Assembly: GCA_016839745.1 (NCBI GenBank) | Contig: JAEOTS010000108.1 | Span: 1 to 11,179, forward strand | Source of the DNA: Promethearchaeota archaeon | GTDB taxonomy: Archaea > Asgardarchaeota > Lokiarchaeia > Sigyniarchaeales > SOKP01 | Reading direction: 5' to 3' | Length of the DNA: 11,179 nucleotides | In this document: one piece after another, positions 158 through 10,568 of the stretch | Layout: every line of letters begins with the position of its first letter | How positions within the stretch are numbered: the stretch's first letter is position 1 | Made by a program: the position numbers and the translations under genes | Notes under the pieces: model-generated | The model's input: the letters and a program-made list of their open reading frames with translations, nothing else | Told to the model about the DNA's origin: nothing | Database searches by the model: none

Positions 158-1180
158 ATGGAACAAATAATCTCGCGTTGTGGAAACATCTGTTCTGAAT
201 GTCCTTGGTCTATGTTCGTGCGAAAAAAAATCGCTAAAGAAGATTGGGAGGAATATTCTCAGCAGATTAAAACCTACACTGGATATAAACCAGTTAAATT
301 CGAATGGGAGGGTTGTGTAGGATGTCACACCCCTAATGATGAATTACCGAGTCATCCTTTTTTTAACTTCTTGAAGAAATGTCGGACGAGAAAATGTGGG
401 CAGTATAATGAAATTCCGAATTGCGCTTACTGCGGACGATTCCCATGTGCAAATACAGTAGCAAGCGATAAGTTTACAAAAGAAAAAGTTTCAGAAAAAT
501 TAGGAAAAGAAGTTAGCGATGAAGAGTACGAACGATATATCAAAATGTTTGATTCAATGACAAATCTAAACGATATACGGAGTCGGCTGAAAGATACTCA
601 AATAAAGAATCCAAAGCTTGTAACCCATAAAAGGGAAATACCTGAGTTAATGGGAACATTTAAGAACGCTAGTTTCAAGTTTGTCTATGATGTACTACTC
701 GCAATTGCTAACTCAAATTTGGGGATTAAGGGTATTGATACTGTTTCCGGTCTCGAATTATATAAAGAAAGGGAGGAATTCTTTTGGAGGTTTCTTTGGC
801 TTATTGGAATATTTGGCAATGTTAATAAACACGAATTGAACCTCGATAGCGGTACTCTATACGATAATAGAAAACCTATATCTCTCCCAAACAACGAAGA
901 AGGATGGAACATTATTTTTGATATTCTCTCAAAATTTGGAATAGATACGGAGTTAGAGATTAAGACTGACAAGTTATACACGCCTGGTGGTTATATGAGA
1001 GCAAAAATACCCAAAACTAACGAGCCTGCGTATCTCCTAAAAATGAAAACCGACCCAAAACTCCAGAAATACCCCTTTTTTAAGGGATTGAATGAAATGC
1101 TCTTAGAATTACAGAAAAATAGCGAAAAACGAGCATTTTCAAATTTTAAGAAGTTAAATTTTACTTCAATTCTCGAGTAA
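158..1180 (+). CDS. DUF3795-domain Cys-rich (putative metal/Fe-S binding) protein with a long C-terminal extension
   Basis: N-terminal CGNICSECP, CVGC, CRTRKC and CAYCGRFPC motifs match the DUF3795 pattern. ATG at 158 (alternative GTG at 155), TAA at 1178-1180. Confidence 0.75.
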   Translation: MEQIISRCGNICSECPWSMFVRKKIAKEDWEEYSQQIKTYTGYKPVKFEWEGCVGCHTPNDELPSHPFFNFLKKCRTRKCGQYNEIPNCAYCGRFPCANTVASDKFTKEKVSEKLGKEVSDEEYERYIKMFDSMTNLNDIRSRLKDTQIKNPKLVTHKREIPELMGTFKNASFKFVYDVLLAIANSNLGIKGIDTVSGLELYKEREEFFWRFLWLIGIFGNVNKHELNLDSGTLYDNRKPISLPNNEEGWNIIFDILSKFGIDTELEIKTDKLYTPGGYMRAKIPKTNEPAYLLKMKTDPKLQKYPFFKGLNEMLLELQKNSEKRAFSNFKKLNFTSILE

Positions 1181-1226
1181 AAAAAAAGAGTATTTATTGT
1201 AGGTTTAATCCTACAATTAAATTTTT
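1179..1226. terminator. Probable bidirectional terminator between convergent DUF3795 and AOR genes
   Basis: Perfect 8-bp inverted repeat ATTGTAGG (1196-1203) / CCTACAAT (1210-1217). It is followed by a T9 tract on the minus strand (A run 1179-1187) and TTTTT (1222-1226) on the plus strand. Confidence 0.7.
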
Positions 1227-3144
1227 ATTCTATTAAGCGTCCTGCGTTAGCTAATTTTTCAGCTACATCTTTTAACCCTAACTTTTCTAAGGTTTCACGA
1301 GTTTGCCATCCAGTTTCTTTGTCCCAACCATGAAGCTCATAAAATTTATCCAGCATTGCGTTATACTTATTCATATCTAATTTCTCACCTTTATGTGGTC
1401 CTGATTGGATTGGATCTTCGAAAAATCTTCGATGTGGCAAATCATCTTTACGCGTAAATCCCACATGTAGCGTATTAAACGCTTTTTCTAAATTATACGA
1501 TTTCTGACCAAGTAACATGAATTCTTCTTCGTTTAGATTGGTTCCAAGCGCTAAATTGGTTAAATCAACGTAATCAGAGGGTTCAAGCGCATACACACCT
1601 GACCAAGTCCCAACATACACGCATATTCCTATAATATCTTCGATTTCTTTTGAGCGTAATTCCCAGAACACCATTGGAGGTTGGTCTTCGTAGGAAAACG
1701 GATTAAATTTAGCTCCTTTAGGACCAAACGCAATAGGTAAATTGAGGCTACCTCTCATATGGCGTCCTGCTATAGGAGATGTCGCACATGCAAGTGACCA
1801 GCCTTTTGCGAGTCTGTAAGGGTCAAGCGTATCTTGATTTTTTTGGTGGATAGCAAATCGTTCTGATCCTTTTCCAAGTTTCTTTGCTGCCTCGACTACC
1901 CCATCTGCGAGAAAATCTCCAAACCCTTTACGATGAGCGATTTTTTCTTGTAATTCCATCATTGCTTCCGTATTTCCCCAGGTTAATTCGAGTCCATCAG
2001 TATCGTCTTTCGTTAAAAGTCCTTTTTCGTACGCCTCGAACGCCCAAGACATCACGACAGAAGAGTTATCTCCATCCAAACCTAACTGGTTGGCACGAAG
2101 GTGGTATTTTAACGAAGCATCTGGTTCAGTAACATCCATTTTACCTGACCACATTACGGAATTTATCCAATATCCTAGACCCTTAGCACCTTTGTATTTT
2201 CCTTCCCCTATCTCTGAATATGGTTGACACCCGACTGGACAAACATAGCACGCTTGTATTTTTTTGAAGAACCTACCAACGCCATTCTTACCCATCATTT
2301 TGGTTCTTTTTTCGCGAGACCAATGTACATCTTGGGAATTTCTCACGGTGTGCATCATTTCCCAGAGTTCGTCGAATTGTTCAGAATCGTTGTATACAAG
2401 CCCTCCAAGGGTTTTCTTCCTAAAAATCTTAGCTGTAGGGCGTTTCATGATTTTCTGATAAGCCTCATATGCCCGTTCAACAAATTCCTCAGGGAAAGCA
2501 ACCTTTACCTCCTTATGTCCCCGAACAACGATTGCTTTTATTTTCTTGTCTCCCATTATACATCCAACACCTGATCCTCCAGCTGCTCGACCGCAATCTA
2601 CGATGATACCGGATCCATGGACAAGATTTTCACCAGCGGGTCCTATGGAAGCAACCTCGATTTTATTATCGTTATGTTCTTTTTTAAGGAGTTCTTCCGT
2701 TTCAAATGTAGTTTTACCCCATAGATGACTGGCATCCCGGATTTCAGCTTTTCCGTCTTCTATAAAGAGATATAGTGGTTTTTGTGCTTTTCCACTAATT
2801 ACAATTTGATCAAAGCCCGCAAATTTCAATTCAGGACTAAAATGACCCCCACAATTGGAGGATCCTTTGCCATTATTGAAGACATTCAAAGTATCGATAT
2901 TCGTCCGGTTTGAAGCGGGAAGAATCGTTCCAACGAGAGCCCCAGCACCAAAAATAAGATAGTTTTCTGGATCAGACCATTTTGTATTGGTTTCTAACTC
3001 GTTTAAAAGAATCCAACTACTTATAGCTCTTCCTCCTATCCATCTTTCAGCATATTTATTATCTTCTACTTTAACTGTATCGTCGCTTAAGTTTATTCTA
3101 AGTATCTTTCCGGTGATTCCACCACGGATATTAAAGTTGCTCAT
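1225..3144 (-). CDS. aor: Tungsten-dependent aldehyde:ferredoxin oxidoreductase (AOR/WOR) family protein, divergent active site
   Basis: Motifs GKILRINLS, SNCGGHFSPELKFAGFD, SIGPAGENLV, GCIMGDKKIKAI, CYVCPVGC [4Fe-4S], QLGLD, GICVY and FYELHGWD. Start is placed at ATG 3144 (MSNFNIRGG), 1 nt after the upstream stop and preceded by GGAAGGTGA (SD-like). Confidence 0.92.
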   Translation of the reverse strand: MSNFNIRGGITGKILRINLSDDTVKVEDNKYAERWIGGRAISSWILLNELETNTKWSDPENYLIFGAGALVGTILPASNRTNIDTLNVFNNGKGSSNCGGHFSPELKFAGFDQIVISGKAQKPLYLFIEDGKAEIRDASHLWGKTTFETEELLKKEHNDNKIEVASIGPAGENLVHGSGIIVDCGRAAGGSGVGCIMGDKKIKAIVVRGHKEVKVAFPEEFVERAYEAYQKIMKRPTAKIFRKKTLGGLVYNDSEQFDELWEMMHTVRNSQDVHWSREKRTKMMGKNGVGRFFKKIQACYVCPVGCQPYSEIGEGKYKGAKGLGYWINSVMWSGKMDVTEPDASLKYHLRANQLGLDGDNSSVVMSWAFEAYEKGLLTKDDTDGLELTWGNTEAMMELQEKIAHRKGFGDFLADGVVEAAKKLGKGSERFAIHQKNQDTLDPYRLAKGWSLACATSPIAGRHMRGSLNLPIAFGPKGAKFNPFSYEDQPPMVFWELRSKEIEDIIGICVYVGTWSGVYALEPSDYVDLTNLALGTNLNEEEFMLLGQKSYNLEKAFNTLHVGFTRKDDLPHRRFFEDPIQSGPHKGEKLDMNKYNAMLDKFYELHGWDKETGWQTRETLEKLGLKDVAEKLANAGRLIE

Positions 3145-3145
3145 T

Positions 3146-3409
3146 TTAATCTTCACCTTCCTCAATAGTAATTGCATTGTAAAAACAAAACTTCACACAA
3201 AGCGGTTGCTCTTCTCCTTCACATTTATCGCAGGTATTGTTCAAACTCCAACTCCAAATACCGTTTATGTGATCTCTTTCAACAGAAATACTCGAAATTG
3301 ATGGTTGAAACGCTTTTTTATGATGATAAGAGCATATTAGCTCACAAGTTTTACACGCATAACACTTTTCGGGATAATGCTTAATTTTAATATTATTCAT
3401 ATTTTCCAT
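3146..3409 (-). CDS. Small 4Fe-4S dicluster protein, probable electron-transfer partner of the AOR
   Basis: CYACKTCELIC and CDKC-x7-CVKFC motifs plus an FQPSISSISV segment typical of AOR-associated Fe-S subunits. Its stop abuts the AOR start. Alternative ATG at 3400. Confidence 0.85.
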   Translation of the reverse strand: MENMNNIKIKHYPEKCYACKTCELICSYHHKKAFQPSISSISVERDHINGIWSWSLNNTCDKCEGEEQPLCVKFCFYNAITIEEGED

Positions 3410-3470
3410 CCTAATTAGTTTAACCTTATTTCTTCTTTAAAACAAAATATTTTCTTTTTTTTTACAAATT

Positions 3471-4232
3471 TTATATTGCTGTAGTAGATCTCAATAACTT
3501 CTTATTTTCATCTAAATGATGTGAGATCTCTACAATTTTTCTTACTCTACTAATTTCTAAAACGCCATTTTTCCTATCAGATTCACTACAAACGGCACCT
3601 CTGAATCCAGTCACATCAGCCCCTAAATCATTAAGTATGTTTATATCCTCTGGTTTGAGAGACCCGGCTAGAGCAGCTAACAAGTTATATTCGTGAGCTT
3701 TATTCACAAATTTCTTTAATTGTTCAGTATCTATGAAATCGAACAATTTTCGACCATCCTTTGAAAGGGTATCTAACATTGCTACATCGGCTCCAGCTGA
3801 ATTACATATTGCTGGAATATCCATTGCATCAATACCGTTAAACGATTTGAAATCTGCGTAACCCGCTCCAACAACTAAAATGTCTTGGTTAACATCTTTA
3901 GTTGCTTTTACTACACTTTCTAATAATTTTACTCCCTCTTCGAAAGAGCTAGGGCCATAGAGTCCTACTTTTACTATGTCAGCACCGTAAGCTGCCGTAC
4001 CAGAAGCAGCAAGGGCAGCGGTCCCAGGTAAATTTGGCATGTCCCCAATAGCAACGCTCAAAGTAAAATCGTTACCATAATTTCTAATTTTCTTTATCAA
4101 CCAGGGAAAAGAAGCCCCAAGTGAACCTTCACTAGGATTTTTCAGATCGATTATATCAGCTCCTCCTTCAATAGCAGGTATTAATTCCTCAAAGGAACGG
4201 ATACTGATCAAAACTTTCAATTCATACACCAA
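3471..4232 (-). CDS. mfnB: (5-formylfuran-3-yl)methyl phosphate synthase (4-HFC-P synthase, MfnB/DUF556)
   Basis: Family signatures GGADIIDLKNPSEGSLGA, SVAIGDMP, VKVGL, AMLDT, ALAGSL and GFRGAVC, with both Schiff-base lysine positions present. The true start may be TTG at 4220 (MKVLISIRS), which has GGTG upstream. Confidence 0.9.
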   Translation of the reverse strand: MVYELKVLISIRSFEELIPAIEGGADIIDLKNPSEGSLGASFPWLIKKIRNYGNDFTLSVAIGDMPNLPGTAALAASGTAAYGADIVKVGLYGPSSFEEGVKLLESVVKATKDVNQDILVVGAGYADFKSFNGIDAMDIPAICNSAGADVAMLDTLSKDGRKLFDFIDTEQLKKFVNKAHEYNLLAALAGSLKPEDINILNDLGADVTGFRGAVCSESDRKNGVLEISRVRKIVEISHHLDENKKLLRSTTAI

Positions 4233-4262
4233 TGTTTATAAAAAAAAAATAATTTAAAAAAT

Positions 4263-5327
4263 TTAATGAACAGGCACACCTATTCCAGCGCCACCTATAG
4301 GTAGATCTTCTCCAAGGGCTTTTTGCACTAGCATAACTATATAATAAGGTGTCATTTCCATATTTTTAGCTGTATTCCTCATTACGGCGGTACAGATCGG
4401 ACAAAAAGTTATGTAAGCTTCAGCTCCAGCATCCTTAGCATCCTGAAGATTCATTTTTACATAACCCATAGCTCTACTCTTCTGAGTTGGAAAAATACCA
4501 GAACTACAGCACATAGAGTTCTCCTTCTGATATTTTCGATCTACAAGCTCGCAACCAAGTAATTCAAAAGACTGTTCCACCCAATCATAAAAGTTTTCTT
4601 TAAGCTCTCCATGGGGATTATATCTTGAAGTACAAGGTCGTTGATAAGCAATTTTCATATTCAGCGGAGTAATAAGATCTTTATTATCACGGAGCCAATT
4701 TCTAATATATTCCATTATGTGTATAGGTTTAAAAGGAACTTCAATCATCAATGCTAACGCCTCCGAGGTTACAAACCCATAACATGCGTCGTGGTAGAAA
4801 ATTATCTCTTTATAACCTGTGTCAGTAAGGTTTTTAATCATTAAAGGTAGATTATCTAAACATGAATTCGCATCACACATATGAGTTTCAGGTGCTCGAC
4901 AAGCGTAGGATCCCCCCATTATTAAGGAGAGTCCCTCAAATAACTTTCCCTTAAACACTTTATCATATGGAAGTGCATCAGCAAAACCTCCTATAGACAG
5001 TGCAGGTTTACCAGGATCGCCTTTAATAATTTTATCCTCTTTTTTCGCCCACCCTAATGCAGTTTTCTTAGCCTCTTCTGGATAAATATAGAGCCCTGTT
5101 TTTTCTTGCATTTGATTAATCAAATCCCATGGATTTGCTCCTCGTGGACAAAATTCATTACACGCATAGCATGTTACACATTTAGCAAGTATATCCGCGG
5201 GTTGTTGATGAATTAATTTTGCCATATCTGCTTTAGCTTGTTTTTCATCGTAATCAACGAACAAACACCTTGCGAGACATTCTCCATTACATTTTGAGAA
5301 ATCACATCTTCTTAAATCAAATACCAT
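4263..5327 (-). CDS. HdrD/GlpC-like (Fe-S)-binding protein: N-terminal ferredoxin domain plus CCG domains
   Basis: N-terminal CDFSKCNGECLARC and CVTCYACNEFCP. C-terminal CCG domain YQRPC...MCCSSG...FCPIC. The first CCG domain is degenerate (YACR...HDACY). GAGG lies upstream of the ATG. Confidence 0.85.
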   Translation of the reverse strand: MVFDLRRCDFSKCNGECLARCLFVDYDEKQAKADMAKLIHQQPADILAKCVTCYACNEFCPRGANPWDLINQMQEKTGLYIYPEEAKKTALGWAKKEDKIIKGDPGKPALSIGGFADALPYDKVFKGKLFEGLSLIMGGSYACRAPETHMCDANSCLDNLPLMIKNLTDTGYKEIIFYHDACYGFVTSEALALMIEVPFKPIHIMEYIRNWLRDNKDLITPLNMKIAYQRPCTSRYNPHGELKENFYDWVEQSFELLGCELVDRKYQKENSMCCSSGIFPTQKSRAMGYVKMNLQDAKDAGAEAYITFCPICTAVMRNTAKNMEMTPYYIVMLVQKALGEDLPIGGAGIGVPVH

Positions 5328-5378
5328 TTTTCATTTCCTCTTTTATTTTTATTTTAAAATATATTTCTTTTACTAAAT

Positions 5379-5696
5379 TTATTGGAACGGTTTTTTAGTT
5401 TTATACCTTTCAATAGCTTTTTCCACATATGCAGTCATTTGAACAGCTGAGCTTTGACACGCGTCCGCACATTTAGCACATCCAATACAATACTCCGGAG
5501 CAACTAGCCAAGCAGATGGAACTTTTCTGTCAAGACCTAATAATACAATGCCGCCCTGTGGACATGCTTCAACGCAATCACCACACCCATCACACATAAA
5601 GGGCATAAACCACGGCATTTGTTTAGGAGGTTTTTTTGGTTTCTTCTTAGCTTTTACTTTGACTTCCTTTCCTTCTTCAGCTTTAATATCAGTCAT
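5379..5696 (-). CDS. 2x[4Fe-4S] ferredoxin with Lys/Pro-rich N-terminal extension
   Basis: CDGCGDCVEACP and CIGCAKCADAC motifs. Confidence 0.88.
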   Translation of the reverse strand: MTDIKAEEGKEVKVKAKKKPKKPPKQMPWFMPFMCDGCGDCVEACPQGGIVLLGLDRKVPSAWLVAPEYCIGCAKCADACQSSAVQMTAYVEKAIERYKTKKPFQ

Positions 5697-5789
5697 TTTA
5701 TTTGTATTATCTTTTAAATTATATTATCCAATAAAATTTCAATTGTAACTTAAATTCAAAAAAAAAAATATGTTTTATTAATTAGTTTA

Positions 5790-6206
5790 TTATTTTGGTA
5801 CATCGGTCCAGAGACCGTGTTCCCATTCTTCACATTCTTGAGTAGGTTTAACATCAAGTCTTTGTCCCGCATAGCATCCCGGTTTGGTGCAATAAAATTC
5901 AGAGATTTTTACTTTTAAATTGTAAATATCGCCTTCTTTGTGTACGCTACCTTTGCCTTTGAATTGATAACATGCCCGGATACCTCCTGCTCGAGATACT
6001 CCGAATGCTACCCAAGGATTTTCAGATAAAGCCGATTCAATAACGGAATATTCGTCTTGAGACAAAGCAAAGACAGCTTCATCATCAGAAACAGATTTTA
6101 CATTTCTTGACACAGTGACAAATGGGATTCCAGTTTTACTTGCCACGTTTAAATGACAACCAATTTTAACCCAAGCTTTCATTCTATCAGTTAGTTTTAT
6201 AGCCAT
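5790..6206 (-). CDS. Pyridoxamine 5'-phosphate oxidase-like (split beta-barrel, FMN/F420-binding) protein, paralog 2
   Basis: KLTDRMK start, VASKTGIP, LSENPWVAF, YQFKGKG and C-terminal YCTKPGCYAG, all typical of this family. SD GGAGG overlaps the upstream stop. Confidence 0.78.
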   Translation of the reverse strand: MAIKLTDRMKAWVKIGCHLNVASKTGIPFVTVSRNVKSVSDDEAVFALSQDEYSVIESALSENPWVAFGVSRAGGIRACYQFKGKGSVHKEGDIYNLKVKISEFYCTKPGCYAGQRLDVKPTQECEEWEHGLWTDVPK

Positions 6207-6218
6207 TTTATTCCCCTC

Positions 6219-6704
6219 CTATTGTATTTTCTCTCCTACTTTTCCTGTTTCAATAGAATAAATTTCTTCCACATGTAAAACTACGACTCCACGTTGTGCT
6301 GGTTTGGAATAAACGACATCTGGAGGAACTTCGTCTGGAGGTTCTTTATTGTGCCATTCACCCCAACCATCTAAGATTTCTTTGGCTGAAACTCCGTACC
6401 AATCGAAATCTGGAGGAAAACCGTATTCGATATCAACAGCTTTACCTTTAAAGATCCAGTCTCTTCCAGAATCCATTGGATGGCATATTGCTATGCTGCA
6501 TTCGGGATTCTCTTTAATATTCGCTTTAGTTTTAAGTAAGAACATATCTGCAACCAGAAGTTTGTCATCTTTTACTGTATCGATATAACGCATTGCCGCT
6601 ATATTTGGTTTACCATCTAGTGATGATGTTGCCAAATAAATCAAACTGCCTCCTTTACCCGGAACAACTAAACCTTCCTTCATTTCCTTTGTTAGTTTTA
6701 CCAT
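6219..6704 (-). CDS. Pyridoxamine 5'-phosphate oxidase-like (split beta-barrel, FMN/F420-binding) protein, paralog 1
   Basis: LATSSLDGKPN, ADMFLLKTKANIKENP, FKGKA and VEEIYS motifs. Start is placed at ATG 6704 (MVKLTKEMK) with AGGAG upstream. Confidence 0.82.
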   Translation of the reverse strand: MVKLTKEMKEGLVVPGKGGSLIYLATSSLDGKPNIAAMRYIDTVKDDKLLVADMFLLKTKANIKENPECSIAICHPMDSGRDWIFKGKAVDIEYGFPPDFDWYGVSAKEILDGWGEWHNKEPPDEVPPDVVYSKPAQRGVVVLHVEEIYSIETGKVGEKIQ

Positions 6705-6801
6705 TTTTTCTCTCCTATTTTTATAATTAAATATATTTTGAAACAAAAAAAATTAAATATTAATTCAAAATTTTTTGTATGAGATTATCTACATTTTTTC
6801 T

Positions 6802-6817
6802 TTTATAAATTTTACTG
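6802..6817 (-). promoter_or_regulatory. Archaeal-type BRE + TATA promoter for the minus-strand redox cluster
   Basis: The minus strand reads CAGTAAAA-TTTATAAA (purine-rich BRE-like element directly upstream of a TATA box), about 100 nt before ATG 6704. The region is very AT-rich, so a chance match is possible. Confidence 0.5.
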
Positions 6818-7047
6818 TATATATAAAGATTTTAAACTGATAATTTAAATAGGATGATATATAAATTTTTCTCAATCCATATCCAAAAGATTTAATTTAA
6901 AACATTTTTTTAATATTATTAAAAGGCTTGGATGTATCTAATATAAACAGATATTTTTTTAATGAAAATTCTAATAATTTAATTAAAGAGTTTCTACAGA
7001 GTGTTAATGTTAATAAAAAAAAGAAAATTAAGTGTAGTGCATGAAAT

Positions 7048-9339
7048 TTGAGTGAAAAATGTGATATATTATTCATTTCTGATTCTAAAGATGAAGAATC
7101 TCCAATATTACAAAAGTTAAAAGTAAATAACCTCAATGTGCAATTGGAATCCTCTGAAAATTATATCAATTTATGTTCAGTGTTATCCAAAAGAAGATCG
7201 GATATTATATTATCCGATTATAAAGCATGGAAACTACGTGGAATAGAAATATTAAGAATTATTAAAGAAAAAGAAATAATGGTCCCCTATATTGTTATTG
7301 GCAAAGAAATAGATGAAAAAGCAATGATTTCCTTGATAGAAACTGGAATAAATGATTATATCGAAGAAGATAGTCTACACCGCTTAATTCCTACTATTAA
7401 ACGAGAGATAAAAAATACAAATTCCGTAAAAAAACTAAAAAACTTTAATTTTTCTCAATGTTTAACTGAAGAGAAATTTCAAACATTACTTAAAATTTCT
7501 GAATTTATGATTTATACATTAGATCTAAACACTAATTTACTTGATGTTAATAATGCTTTTAATGATTTTCTAGGATATAATAAAGGAGAAACCCTTGATT
7601 CATCAAACATTTATAAATTAATTCATCCTAATGATAAAATGATTCTTACTAATGGAATTCAAAAAGTATTGGAAGGAACATTTGTTAAAAATGTTGAATA
7701 TCGATTAAAAAAAAAGAACGGAACCTATATACAACTTTTATCAAATCAAGCACCAATTTTTAATATTCAAAATCAAATTATCGGAATTCTCTGTGTTTCC
7801 CAAGATTTAACGAAAAGCAGAAAAATTGAACAGTCAATTGAAGATCATATCCATAGACAAGCTTTGATTGCCAAATTTGGTTTGGAAACTATTACTGAAA
7901 AAAAAATTGATAATTTATTTAAAAAAGCAACATCTTTGCTAGCAAAAATATTGGATGTAGAGTATACGAAGGTACTTGAAATTCTTCCTAATAAGAAATT
8001 TTTGAAATTACGGGCAGGAGTTGGTTGGCATAAGGGTTTAGTTGGAAATGCAACTGTTGAAAATAATAAAAATTCGCAAGCGGGGTTTACATTACTAACA
8101 ACTGCTCCAGTAATTGTGGAAAACTTGAAAACTGAAACTAGATTTTGTGCCCCTAAACTTCTAGCGGATCATGAAGTTATTAGCGGAATGAGTGTTATTA
8201 TTCAAGGAAAAAACACCCCATTTGGTATTTTAGGAATTCATACAAAAGAACATCGGATATTTTCAAAAGACGATATTAATTTTTTACAATCTATAGCGAA
8301 TGTTCTTGCAGGTGTTATTGTTCGTGATTCTACTGAGAAAGAGTTAAGAGAAAGTGAAGAAAAATATCGAATGCTAACAGAACAATCCTTGTTGGGCACA
8401 TTAATCCTTGCTAATGGACAAATAATTTTTGCAAACAAGGGTATATCTAATATTTTAGGATTTTCAATAAATGAACTGTTATCTTGGAATCTAAATACCA
8501 TAGGCCACCATATTCATTCTGAAGATATACAAATGACAATTGAAAATTATAATAAAATTTTAAACGAGGATATATCCTCTTTTCAATCCGAAATTCGAAT
8601 GAGAAAAAAAAACAATGAGTATTTGTATATTCAGCAGTATTCAAAAAGGATTCAATTTCGAGGAAGTTCTGCTTTATTCATAAATATAATCGATATAACT
8701 GAACAGAAAAAGAATGAAATCTTGCTGGAATCTTCCCTAGCGGAAAAAGAAATACTCCTGAAAGAAATTCATCATAGAGTTAAGAACAATTTACAAATAA
8801 TTTCAAGTTTAATAGTACTGCAAGAACAATATGTAAAAGATGAAAGAATTCTCTATATTTTTAAGGATTTCCAAAGTCGTATTAAAGTTATGGCGCTAAT
8901 ACACCAAACATTATACAACTCCGAAAACTTGAATAAGATACATCTTTCAAATTACATAAAAAACCTTGTTAATAATCTATTTAAAGCTTATTCAGCAAAT
9001 TCCAAACAGATTAAACTAGAATTGAATATTGAAGATATTGATTTCAGTCTAGACAACGCTAATGCTTGTGGTTTAATTATAAATGAACTTGTATCTAACT
9101 CATTAAAACATGCTTTTTCTAATAATAACGATGGAAAAATTATTGTTACACTGAAAAAAACCATAAACAATAGAATATTATTAGATGTCTATGATAATGG
9201 AATAGGTTTTCCCAAAGATGTAGATTATAAAAATTCAGATTCATTAGGGTTAAAACTTATATCCACTATAACCAAACAAATGGATGGAAAGATTTCTATT
9301 GAAAGAAATAATGGAACCCATGTTAAAATCACCTGGTAA
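7048..9339 (+). CDS. Cytoplasmic sensor histidine kinase: degenerate REC - PAS - GAF - PAS - HisKA_2 - HATPase
   Basis: REC-like DIILSDY; PAS segments IHPND...EYRLKKKNG and IHSED...; GAF segment LRAGVGW...SQAGFTL...DDINFLQSIAN; H-box LLKEIHHRVKNNLQ; N-box NELVSNSLKHAF; G1 DNGIGF; SLGLKLI. No transmembrane segment is apparent. The TTG start is uncertain. Confidence 0.93.
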   Translation: MSEKCDILFISDSKDEESPILQKLKVNNLNVQLESSENYINLCSVLSKRRSDIILSDYKAWKLRGIEILRIIKEKEIMVPYIVIGKEIDEKAMISLIETGINDYIEEDSLHRLIPTIKREIKNTNSVKKLKNFNFSQCLTEEKFQTLLKISEFMIYTLDLNTNLLDVNNAFNDFLGYNKGETLDSSNIYKLIHPNDKMILTNGIQKVLEGTFVKNVEYRLKKKNGTYIQLLSNQAPIFNIQNQIIGILCVSQDLTKSRKIEQSIEDHIHRQALIAKFGLETITEKKIDNLFKKATSLLAKILDVEYTKVLEILPNKKFLKLRAGVGWHKGLVGNATVENNKNSQAGFTLLTTAPVIVENLKTETRFCAPKLLADHEVISGMSVIIQGKNTPFGILGIHTKEHRIFSKDDINFLQSIANVLAGVIVRDSTEKELRESEEKYRMLTEQSLLGTLILANGQIIFANKGISNILGFSINELLSWNLNTIGHHIHSEDIQMTIENYNKILNEDISSFQSEIRMRKKNNEYLYIQQYSKRIQFRGSSALFINIIDITEQKKNEILLESSLAEKEILLKEIHHRVKNNLQIISSLIVLQEQYVKDERILYIFKDFQSRIKVMALIHQTLYNSENLNKIHLSNYIKNLVNNLFKAYSANSKQIKLELNIEDIDFSLDNANACGLIINELVSNSLKHAFSNNNDGKIIVTLKKTINNRILLDVYDNGIGFPKDVDYKNSDSLGLKLISTITKQMDGKISIERNNGTHVKITW

Positions 9340-9368
9340 TCTTAAAAATTATAATAAGAAAAAGTAAT

Positions 9369-10193
9369 ATGACACAAATAAAAGTAATGATCGTTGAAGA
9401 CGAATTAATTACCGCTGAAGCAATATCGATTCTTTTAAAAAAATTAAACTATGATCCTATTGCTATAGTTCCTTCTGGAGAAGAAGCAATTTCCAAAATC
9501 AGGAATTTAAATCTTGATTTGATATTAATGGATATAATTCTAGCAGGAACTATGGATGGAATTGAAACAGCGCAATTTATTAATACAAACTATAATATTC
9601 CCATTATATTTATAACCGCATATGGAGATAAAAAAACCTTAGATAGAGCCAAATTATCGGAACCTTACGGATATATAGTAAAACCTATCACGAATGAAGA
9701 TGACTTGCTACCTACAATAGAACTCGCAATGTATAATCATGAAGTAAAAAACAAGCTTAAGAAAGATCATGAAAAATTTGAACAGATTAAGCAATTATTT
9801 CAACCAGATAAATTGATTTTACCTTCCCAGGTTAAAAAACCCTTAGAAAAAAGAAATTATCTTGAACAAGCAAAGGAAGATTTAGATCCTATGCTTGAAA
9901 TAGAAACTCTTGGTGAAAAAATCAATTTAGTTGAATGGTTGAAATCGTTCTCAAATCCTGACAGATTTTTAATATTGGAATTATTAAAATCTCAGTCTCT
10001 AAAATTGGATGAGATCCAGATGTTAATCGGTAAATCTCAATCTACCTCTTCACACCATATTAAGAAATTAGAAAAAACGGGATTCATTAAAGGATGGAAA
10101 AATGGAAAATATATTTATTACTCGTTAAATAAGCCTAAATTAATGGAATTTGTGTATTTATGGGAGAATTGGATTAAAAATCTCTCGTCTTAA
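9369..10193 (+). CDS. Response regulator: intact REC domain plus C-terminal ArsR/SmtB-type winged HTH
   Basis: REC residues IVEDE, LILMD (phosphoacceptor), ITAY and YIVKP. C-terminal SNPDRFLILELL...SQSTSSHHIKKLEKTGFI...GKYIYYSL. Confidence 0.9.
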   Translation: MTQIKVMIVEDELITAEAISILLKKLNYDPIAIVPSGEEAISKIRNLNLDLILMDIILAGTMDGIETAQFINTNYNIPIIFITAYGDKKTLDRAKLSEPYGYIVKPITNEDDLLPTIELAMYNHEVKNKLKKDHEKFEQIKQLFQPDKLILPSQVKKPLEKRNYLEQAKEDLDPMLEIETLGEKINLVEWLKSFSNPDRFLILELLKSQSLKLDEIQMLIGKSQSTSSHHIKKLEKTGFIKGWKNGKYIYYSLNKPKLMEFVYLWENWIKNLSS

Positions 10194-10235
10194 TTATTTA
10201 AAAGATAATATAAAGAAGAAAATAGGAAGAAAATC

Positions 10236-10568
10236 ATGGAAGAATTGACAAAGAATAAACTTAAAACAATAAAAAAAAAACACGAGAATAATGCCTCCTA
10301 TACATTCTTACGAGAAAGTATGGAAATCATAGGCAATGAAGACAGATTTTTAATTTTAAATCTTTTAAATAATAAACCATGTTTACTCTCTGATATTGAG
10401 AAAAATTTGAACAGAAATCAACCTTCTATCTCCCATCATGTTAGAATTTTGGAGGAACATAATTTTATTCATAGTTCAAAGAAAGGTAAATTCAAGGAAT
10501 ATTCAATTTCCAAAGAAAAGTTTGTAAAACTGTTAAATATTTGGAATCAATGGTTTCATGTAATTTGA
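10236..10568 (+). CDS. ArsR/SmtB-family transcriptional regulator
   Basis: GNEDRFLILNLL...NQPSISHHVRILEEHNFI...GKFKEYSI winged-HTH signature. AGGA lies upstream of the ATG. Confidence 0.88.
   Translation: MEELTKNKLKTIKKKHENNASYTFLRESMEIIGNEDRFLILNLLNNKPCLLSDIEKNLNRNQPSISHHVRILEEHNFIHSSKKGKFKEYSISKEKFVKLLNIWNQWFHVI

Follow-up and report, generated by a model that had tools for sequence, protein, structure and literature searches.

Seven co-oriented genes on the minus strand of an 11,179-nucleotide stretch of lokiarchaeial ('Promethearchaeota') DNA (contig JAEOTS010000108.1; the whole stretch is hereafter called the window) run from position 6704 to 1225 and join a second copy of mfnB, whose product we call MfnB2, to a core of two flavoproteins, a ferredoxin and a CCG-domain protein on one side and to a small Fe-S protein and a tungsten/molybdenum (W/Mo)-pterin enzyme of the aldehyde oxidoreductase (AOR) family, of a clade we call 'Asn-type', on the other. 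MfnB condenses two molecules of glyceraldehyde-3-phosphate into 4-(hydroxymethyl)-2-furancarboxaldehyde phosphate (4-HFC-P), the committed step of methanofuran synthesis. We tentatively read this island as a regulated, horizontally mobile accessory operon that would serve as an inducible branch of methanofuran/tetrahydromethanopterin (H4MPT) one-carbon (C1) chemistry, with MfnB2 doing its normal job. If this is true, the island adds an inducible and mobile extension to the methanofuran/H4MPT pathway. The analysis also brings two families to light, namely a large clade of AORs whose catalytic Glu is replaced by Asn, and a split-barrel/CCG/ferredoxin module. A preliminary description of this DNA had not recognised the gene combination as a described system, and our full-text searches of the literature on MfnB with AOR, and on Lokiarchaeia with AOR and methanofuran, likewise returned no published description of the cluster.

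All seven genes, which the preliminary description had listed with gaps of 1 to 93 nt, were confirmed by the open reading frame (ORF) listing and by profile searches, and with the likely starts the intergenic gaps measure, in order, 12, 93, 51, 30-42, 61 and 1 nt. The same block, with differing flanks, recurs in another five species of the genus, at about 14 loci from the species-genome collection and on several metagenome contigs; in all, at least 20 species-level genomes plus several metagenome contigs carry it. The order of this 10-gene unit is ArsR, response regulator and sensor kinase on one side, and flavoprotein pair, ferredoxin, CCG protein, MfnB2, small Fe-S protein and AOR on the other. 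This recurrence across species-level genomes and metagenome contigs shows that the arrangement is not due to chance, and the linkage of mfnB and AOR, for which a search of relatives had been proposed, is therefore conserved. The seven-gene unit as first delimited is conserved too, although it is incomplete, since the conserved unit also takes in the sensor kinase, response regulator and ArsR genes (7048-10568), which are transcribed divergently from the operon. Among 121 genomes sampled from the order with the first flavoprotein as probe, 16 carry the island, all of them in one family and distributed over four genera, and the AOR orthologue was detected in 17 of 111 genomes of that family, nearly the same set. 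This patchy occurrence, with the island in about 15% of the species of one family, is that of an accessory island.

Pairwise dN/dS values against four orthologous islands were between 0.05 and 0.19 for every gene of the operon, with one exception (0.43, in a ferredoxin comparison), and all seven genes are under purifying selection. The CCG gene occurs in two alleles, either 72-74% (L051, L052, L053) or 94-96% (L049, L054, L071) identical to that of the window, and these alleles do not track AOR identity (85-94%). Compared with L052, dS was 2.76 for the CCG gene and 0.62-0.66 for the AOR, MfnB2 and ferredoxin genes. The two alleles, together with the high dS of the CCG gene, suggest recombination inside the island.

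Natural variants of the island show which of its parts can be exchanged. In locus L167 the regulators, the core and MfnB2 are followed by Ftr-Mch in place of the small Fe-S/AOR pair, and in locus L171 the core is followed directly by Ftr-Mch. In genome G104 the core leads directly into the small Fe-S/AOR pair, without an mfnB in the island and with one mfnB elsewhere in the genome. Ftr-Mch is co-directional with the core in both L167 and L171, and the Ftr and Mch of L167 exceed their NCBIfam equivalog cut-offs. The L167-type Mch is a rare second copy, present among the 111 family genomes only in the island-bearing G007, where it has a matching Ftr and where the pair is preceded by a URO-D-family gene. 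The invariant element is the flavoprotein/ferredoxin/CCG core. The parts attached to it interchangeably are MfnB, Ftr-Mch and the Asn-type AOR, and three of the four enzymes that join the core (MfnB, Ftr and Mch) belong to the methanofuran/H4MPT route. That the recurring partners are enzymes of this route favours a one-carbon-carrier role over free furan-aldehyde turnover.

The mfnB2 gene (3471-4232, minus strand) probably starts, from the reading of its junction, at a TTG at 4220, which gives a protein of 249 aa. MfnB2 matches PF04476 with 249.4 bits (cut-off 22.4) over profile positions 1-227 of 228, and aligns with Methanocaldococcus jannaschii MfnB (MJ1099, PDB 4RC1) at 234 bits; its scores in NCBIfam lie below the equivalog cut-offs (278.8 against 341 for NF002573, and 262.2 against 304 for a second model). 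In MJ1099 numbering it keeps Asp25, Lys27, Lys85 and Asp151, to which we attribute catalytic roles, with Lys27 as the Schiff-base residue, following the 2015 mechanistic work on MfnB. It also keeps Lys155 and the capping-loop Arg217, both named in PMC11365854. All six residues are likewise present in the other complete sequences of its clade, clade B (21 sequences, two copies being cut by contig ends). Since every catalytic residue is kept, MfnB2 is most likely an ordinary 4-HFC-P synthase that has not been repurposed. It resembles MJ1099 (4RC1/4U9P) in the full-length PF04476 match, in the six residues and in a methanofuran-using host (fwd, ftr), and differs from it in being a second copy from an Asgard-only clade, in falling below the NCBIfam equivalog cut-off, and in lying inside a two-component-controlled redox operon rather than among housekeeping or mfn genes.

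In a maximum-likelihood tree MfnB sequences form two clades. Clade A follows genus taxonomy and includes the other mfnB copy of the host, while clade B, which includes MfnB2, is Asgard-only (SH-aLRT 97) and has island copies interleaved with copies from other contexts. This interleaving suggests exchange with other mfnB copies, and it is one of the observations that would fit a passenger gene, that is, a duplicated housekeeping mfnB captured in an unrelated redox operon, whose position has been inherited without functional coupling. The restriction of the island to one family, where synteny may reflect descent plus block transfer, the G104 variant that works without mfnB, and the fact that MfnB2 is the least conserved operon protein in most comparisons would fit it as well. 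We nevertheless regard a passenger as quite unlikely, given that mfnB2 sits mid-operon with short gaps, is under purifying selection (omega 0.13-0.19) and has been retained across islands despite divergence to 57-62% identity, and that Ftr and Mch, of the same pathway, are independently found with this core.

Genome G007 has no clade-A mfnB. On its contig C22 (L064, 7977-18088) the island is broken in two; the halves converge and both end with an mfnB, and a weak DDE-transposase-like ORF lies between them. An MfnA-like decarboxylase gene (Pyridoxal_deC) precedes the first mfnB, a clade-B copy, which is then followed by the small Fe-S/AOR pair. This layout is consistent with an inversion between the two mfnB copies. 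The contexts of clade-B mfnB outside islands (ABC-2 transporter, GNAT, aconitase, URO-D) were considered and proved uninformative on function. Among them, URO-D-family genes (a family of MtaA-like methyltransferases or decarboxylases) stand just upstream of a non-island clade-B mfnB at L055:788-1948, L056:347-1507 and L258:8392-9567; this is the family that also precedes the spare Ftr-Mch of G007, and such neighbours may be another C1 link. The housekeeping mfnB of G002 was for a time taken for a pseudogene, an idea that was dropped when the two TAA codons turned out to lie beyond the true stop of an intact gene.

Outside the island, the host genome (3.5 Mb, 192 contigs, 89% complete) encodes a complete canonical methanofuran/H4MPT route. 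The second mfnB, on another contig and 46% identical to MfnB2, lies among proC, hisA and RPA genes; MfnA and an MfnF-type protein are encoded elsewhere in the genome, both exceeding NCBIfam cut-offs; and other contigs carry two copies of fwdB, fwdC, a fwdA-like gene, two copies of ftr, mch and mtd. No mcrA was found in the host genome. With canonical fwd, ftr, mch, mtd, mfnA, an mfnF-like gene and a clade-A mfnB all elsewhere, the island supplements the pathway rather than forming part of it. The mfnB of the window had been called an orphan, and within the window this stands, where, as reported, no mfnA, mfnC, mfnD, mfnE, mfnF, fwd or ftr was found; it does not stand for the genome. The search for a second mfnB and the phylogeny that had been suggested thus gave a copy of a different clade that lies among housekeeping genes, the rest of the methanofuran genes being encoded elsewhere. 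Two substitutions were also considered and ruled out: the AOR does not stand in for a missing Fwd, as canonical fwd genes are present, and the four-gene core does not stand in for a missing Mtd, as mtd is present. Moreover, Fwd/Fmd is defined by a FwdB of the DMSO-reductase family together with FwdA, FwdC and FwdD, and the island enzyme is of the AOR family. Two genomes of the same genus, G018 and G024 (98-99% complete), gave no mfnB match with the query used, and G018 has mch; either they are without methanofuran synthesis or they use something else.

Bacterial methylotrophs carry an mfnB homologue among fhc/mch/mtd and H4MPT genes, and Methylophilaceae and other mfnB homologues surfaced in our homologue search. 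These 'archaeal-like' C1 clusters are comparable to the island in that mfnB is grouped with C1-carrier enzymes and not with other mfn genes. The island differs from them in its flavoprotein/CCG/ferredoxin core and Asn-type AOR, in having Ftr-Mch only in variants, in its Asgard host, and in being accessory to a complete canonical pathway.

The AOR-family enzyme (1225-3144, minus strand; 639 aa from the ATG at 3144) matches AFOR_N with 223.9 and AFOR_C with 279.2 bits and contains the C-x2-C-x3-C and the later D-x-x-G-x-C motif that hold the [4Fe-4S] cysteines. Its best PDB match is the Pyrococcus furiosus AOR (1AOR, 336 bits), and it shares with the P. furiosus AOR/WOR family both AFOR domains, the [4Fe-4S] Cys, His448 and recognisable pterin-binding motifs. 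The active site differs: the canonical GPEYES motif reads GLGYWINS, and in P. furiosus numbering Glu313 is replaced by Asn, Tyr312 by Ile, Arg182 by Gly and Tyr452 by Ser. A 2025 review (PMC12096430) states that all known AORs conserve Glu313, His448 and Tyr427, and Tyr312, Tyr452 and Thr243 likewise appear in its list of conserved second-shell residues. Only His448 of the second-shell residues is kept in the island enzyme, as are the four cluster Cys; the positions aligned with Thr243 and Tyr427, in loops whose alignment is uncertain, do not hold these residues. AFOR_N has 12 matches in the host genome, and the nine paralogues that were aligned all keep Glu313, Arg182 and His448. The NCBIfam scores are far from family thresholds as well (AOR equivalog PRK09849, 246.9 bits, below 868; GAPOR, 22.4, below 1300). 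From its residues, the island enzyme is predicted not to be a canonical aldehyde oxidiser.

A tree built from the 150 closest 50%-identity representatives places the enzyme in a supported clade with Asn at the Glu313 site in 34 of 44 members, and this Asn-type clade (about 27-44 clusters at 50% identity) has no solved or characterised member. A further difference from the P. furiosus enzyme is the obligatory gene for a small 8-Cys subunit of 2x[4Fe-4S] type (3146-3409, minus strand; 87 aa, with a weak Fer4_9 match and two Cys motifs in the translation). The likely AOR start lies 1 nt past the stop of this gene, as read at the junction, and the two are predicted to be translationally coupled. 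Beside each of the nearest non-orthologous Asn-type AORs (40-51% identity) lies a small gene that abuts the start of the AOR gene or overlaps it, and tblastn shows that the one in L128, L130 and L131 is homologous to the small Fe-S protein of the window (32-50% identity). The three contexts of this type with enough flank contain amidohydrolase, Asp/Glu-racemase, dihydroorotate (DHO)-dehydrogenase-like and carbamoylase-type genes, which hints at a role of these relatives in the metabolism of cyclic amides or of N-carbamoyl/N-formyl compounds. Their neighbours also include CN_hydrolase and TRAP or ABC transporter genes. On an archaeal-looking contig with 41% GC (L206:340-5528), an Asn-type AOR of 63% identity and its small Fe-S gene lie divergent from a flavoprotein pair, followed downstream by a DUF2119 and an ATP-grasp gene; there is no mfnB on this short contig. 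The ATP-grasp gene beside the AOR was considered as MfnD and set aside, having no specific NCBIfam support.

The Bam complex comprises the AOR-family BamB, the Fe-S protein BamC and the HdrD-like BamD. The island is similar to this class II benzoyl-CoA reductase (BamBCDEFGHI) in that a non-canonical AOR-family enzyme, a small Fe-S protein and an HdrD-like CCG protein are encoded together. No HdrA-like or NuoEFG-like genes were found in the window or in the conserved island, and no CoA-ester genes. A BamB-like assignment of the AOR was rejected, with BamB matching at 237 bits (over residues 20-445 only) against 336 for the P. furiosus AOR.

The first proposal of the preliminary description was that the AOR acts on the aldehyde made by MfnB. 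Worked out as a pathway to a furan metabolite or cofactor, MfnB2 would make 4-HFC-P, the AOR pair would oxidise it to a furan-2-carboxylate or carry out another two-electron change, and the flavoproteins, ferredoxin and CCG protein would carry electrons or tailor the product further. The adjacency it builds on is conserved: in most copies of the island the gene immediately before the small Fe-S/AOR pair is mfnB2, and even the rearranged island of G007 has the AOR pair right after an mfnB. MfnB2 is, in addition, a spare copy of a separate clade. 4-HFC-P resembles pyridoxal phosphate, both having a heteroaromatic aldehyde and a phosphomethyl group, so that binding by a PNPOx-like protein is plausible, and the remodelled AOR pocket could suit a phosphorylated furan. 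On the other hand, L171 has neither gene of the pair that would be coupled, G104 has the AOR pair and core without an island mfnB, and L167 has mfnB2 and core without AOR; the AOR is without the catalytic Glu used in aldehyde oxidation; the arrangement in G007 can be explained neutrally by an inversion between mfnB copies, with the transposase-like ORF between the halves; and no phosphatase, ligase, transaminase or transporter is encoded in the island to process a furan acid. The idea that 4-HFC-P is passed to the AOR is weakened by the variants in which the two genes are uncoupled and by the absence of the catalytic Glu, yet it stays a live rival because adjacency of mfnB and AOR is the commonest arrangement. 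We consider such a furan pathway somewhat doubtful.

The other two roles that had been proposed found no specific support. In the first, the cluster would handle triose phosphates, methylglyoxal or other reactive aldehydes, with MfnB2 as a phosphate-eliminating triose-phosphate enzyme and the AOR oxidising a 2-oxoaldehyde. The MfnB mechanism passes through an enzyme-bound methylglyoxal-like intermediate, CCG proteins often partner 2-hydroxyacid dehydrogenases, and two-component control fits a stress response. However, MfnB2 is close to the M. jannaschii enzyme and keeps all the residues for the full condensation, no glyoxalase or lactate dehydrogenase gene is in the island, the AOR is without the aldehyde-oxidising Glu and the Ftr/Mch variants would be left unexplained, which together make this role improbable. 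The second, anaerobic catabolism of compounds like furfural or 5-hydroxymethylfurfural (HMF) with a repurposed MfnB, can appeal to general chemistry only, in that a gene for a furan-aldehyde enzyme stands beside an AOR-family gene. We find it scarcely credible: the synthase reaction of MfnB, with its loss of phosphate and water and its aromatisation, is effectively irreversible, the biosynthetic residues are kept, the island contains no transporter, CoA ligase, UbiD-type decarboxylase or ring-cleavage gene, and the Ftr/Mch variants do not fit.

The core that all variants share begins with a PNPOx-like flavin mononucleotide (FMN) split-barrel protein (6219-6704, minus strand; 161 aa from the ATG at 6704, preceded by the ribosome site GGAGAG), which matches PF01243 with 31.3 bits (cut-off 28.1). 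Its model (pLDDT 81) matches structures of HupZ, of uncharacterised, putative PNPOx-like proteins, of F420-dependent FDORs and of FMN-binding proteins, with true PNPOx entries ranking lower (TM about 0.45-0.49); its cofactor may be FMN, F420 or haem. The second, divergent split-barrel protein (5790-6206, minus strand; 138 aa), always paired with the first, has no Pfam or NCBIfam match. It aligns with the first in hhalign (E 3.7e-4), its AlphaFold model (pLDDT 90.7) matches FMN split-barrels, and both models match split-barrel structures with a Foldseek probability of 1.00, so that the 138-aa protein is, by profile and predicted structure, a putative divergent paralogue of the PNPOx-like protein. 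An Fe-S cluster on this second protein was considered and rejected, as its four Cys are invariant in Lokiarchaeia and three of them are lost in the methanogen-like and Firmicutes homologues. Next come a 2x[4Fe-4S] ferredoxin (5379-5696, minus strand; 105 aa, Fer4_9 and Fer4_7, about 47 bits), and an HdrD/GlcF-like Fe-S protein with one clear CCG domain (4263-5327, minus strand; 354 aa). The latter matches PF02754 with 30.5 bits (cut-off 20.6) and Fer4_10 with 16.4, below the cut-off, has HdrB as best PDB match (E 3e-5), and shows one complete C-Xn-CC-Xm-C-x2-C pattern in its translation. It is like the HdrD/GlcF/LutA-type proteins in combining a CCG domain with a putative N-terminal Fe-S motif, and unlike them in having only one clear CCG motif and, as partner, the PNPOx-like split-barrel pair instead of a GlcD-type FAD enzyme; its distant homologues (36-40% identity) adjoin GlcD-like FAD dehydrogenases.

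The core reaches beyond Lokiarchaeia. The closest non-lokiarchaeial CCG homologues (47% identity) belong to orthologous modules on Methanomicrobiales-assigned contigs, where the gene order is CCG, PNPOx-like, 154-aa partner and ferredoxin, and the PNPOx-like homologue on a Methanomicrobiales-like contig is 77% identical to that of the window. Records for a cultured methanogen, Methanoculleus bourgensis MS2, include a PNPOx-like protein of 73% identity, which opens the module to genetics and biochemistry beyond uncultured Lokiarchaeia. Scanning metagenomes with the alignment of the flavoproteins gave 65 loci. The split-barrel pair is kept in lokiarchaeial, methanogen-like and Firmicutes contigs, and the ferredoxin accompanies it in other lineages; Firmicutes-like loci have the pair only, with or without the ferredoxin. 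In all 22 methanogen-type loci with enough flank, a convergent mch lies directly after the ferredoxin. In two Firmicutes-like loci (L150 and L151, 8001-16483) the flavoprotein pair is about 4 kb from LarC/LarE/LarB-like genes (Ni_insertion, Asn_synthase-like, AIRC), probably by coincidence.

We hypothesise that, in the inducible C1 branch that we tentatively favour, the PAS/GAF kinase and the REC-ArsR regulator would switch the operon on, and MfnB2 would convert two glyceraldehyde-3-phosphate to 4-HFC-P, raising the supply of methanofuran. The Asn-type pterin enzyme may then carry out a ferredoxin-linked two-electron step on a group at the formyl or aldehyde level that is not a canonical free aldehyde, and the flavoprotein pair, ferredoxin and CCG protein could pass on or consume the electrons. 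The core would in this scheme be a four-protein ferredoxin-linked module, with MfnB2 and either the small Fe-S/AOR pair or a spare Ftr-Mch as add-ons. The substrates, the direction of electron flow and the inducing signal are here what we infer. More specifically, the core and the Asn-type enzyme might form a ferredoxin-dependent system on methanofuran-related substrates, for example a tungsten enzyme oxidising or generating a formamide-type formyl group, as in formyl-methanofuran, or one that turns 4-HFC-P into a new furan cofactor; in this specific form we think the proposal unlikely. If true, it would represent an undescribed C1-carrier branch in Asgard archaea and some methanogens. A pterin enzyme that acts on 4-HFC-P or on a methanofuran-bound group would, if true, be new chemistry for the AOR family.

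Several observations weigh against an inducible C1 branch. On bacteria-like contigs, genes closely related to that of the AOR belong to clusters of amidohydrolase, racemase and DHO-dehydrogenase genes from which methanofuran genes are absent. The synteny within one family is partly inherited, and the counts of islands are therefore not independent. Just two contigs, both from metagenomes, represent the Ftr-Mch variants; neither Ftr nor Mch catalyses a redox reaction, and their link to the core could be regulatory or inherited synteny. The Mch of the methanogen-like loci is convergent and thus not co-transcribed with the core, and it scores as a canonical Mch (418 bits, cut-off 229). Furthermore, in nearly all islands the small Fe-S/AOR pair follows mfnB without an intervening gene, as a relation of substrate and product would likewise predict. 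The roles given to the enzymes of island and core are, in addition, predictions from sequence.

The regulators that would control the operon lie on the plus strand, beyond an AT-rich divergent intergenic region (6705-7047, about 24% GC) that presumably holds the promoter and operator for the operon and the regulator genes; no operator-like repeats above the AT-rich background were detected in it. They comprise a hybrid sensor kinase with the Pfam architecture REC-PAS-GAF-PAS-HisKA_2-HATPase (7048-9339), a response regulator with an ArsR-type helix-turn-helix output domain (9369-10193; Response_reg 70.8 bits, with HTH_5) and a stand-alone ArsR-family protein (10236-10568; HTH_5 37.3 bits). The kinase, conserved with the island, keeps its place, with 68-86% identity, in those island loci that extend to the regulator side, the response regulator is syntenic in those extending that far, and the stand-alone ArsR in most island loci. 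The stand-alone ArsR cross-matches residues 187-274 of the response regulator, with whose output domain it is paralogous, and the two are kept together with the island.

The remaining features flank the unit. On the regulator side, a partial gene for an FkbM-type methyltransferase (PF05050; 10784-11179, minus strand) lies at the contig end. On the other side, a terminator-like hairpin read from the sequence, with a 7-bp stem followed by a run of nine T (1179-1216, minus strand), lies just 3' of the AOR stop, and a gene convergent to the AOR, outside the conserved unit, encodes a 341-aa protein with an N-terminal DUF3795 domain (155-1180). Orthologues of this protein (81-84% identity) lie just beyond the AOR in two species genomes, G014 and G012 (loci L049 and L051).

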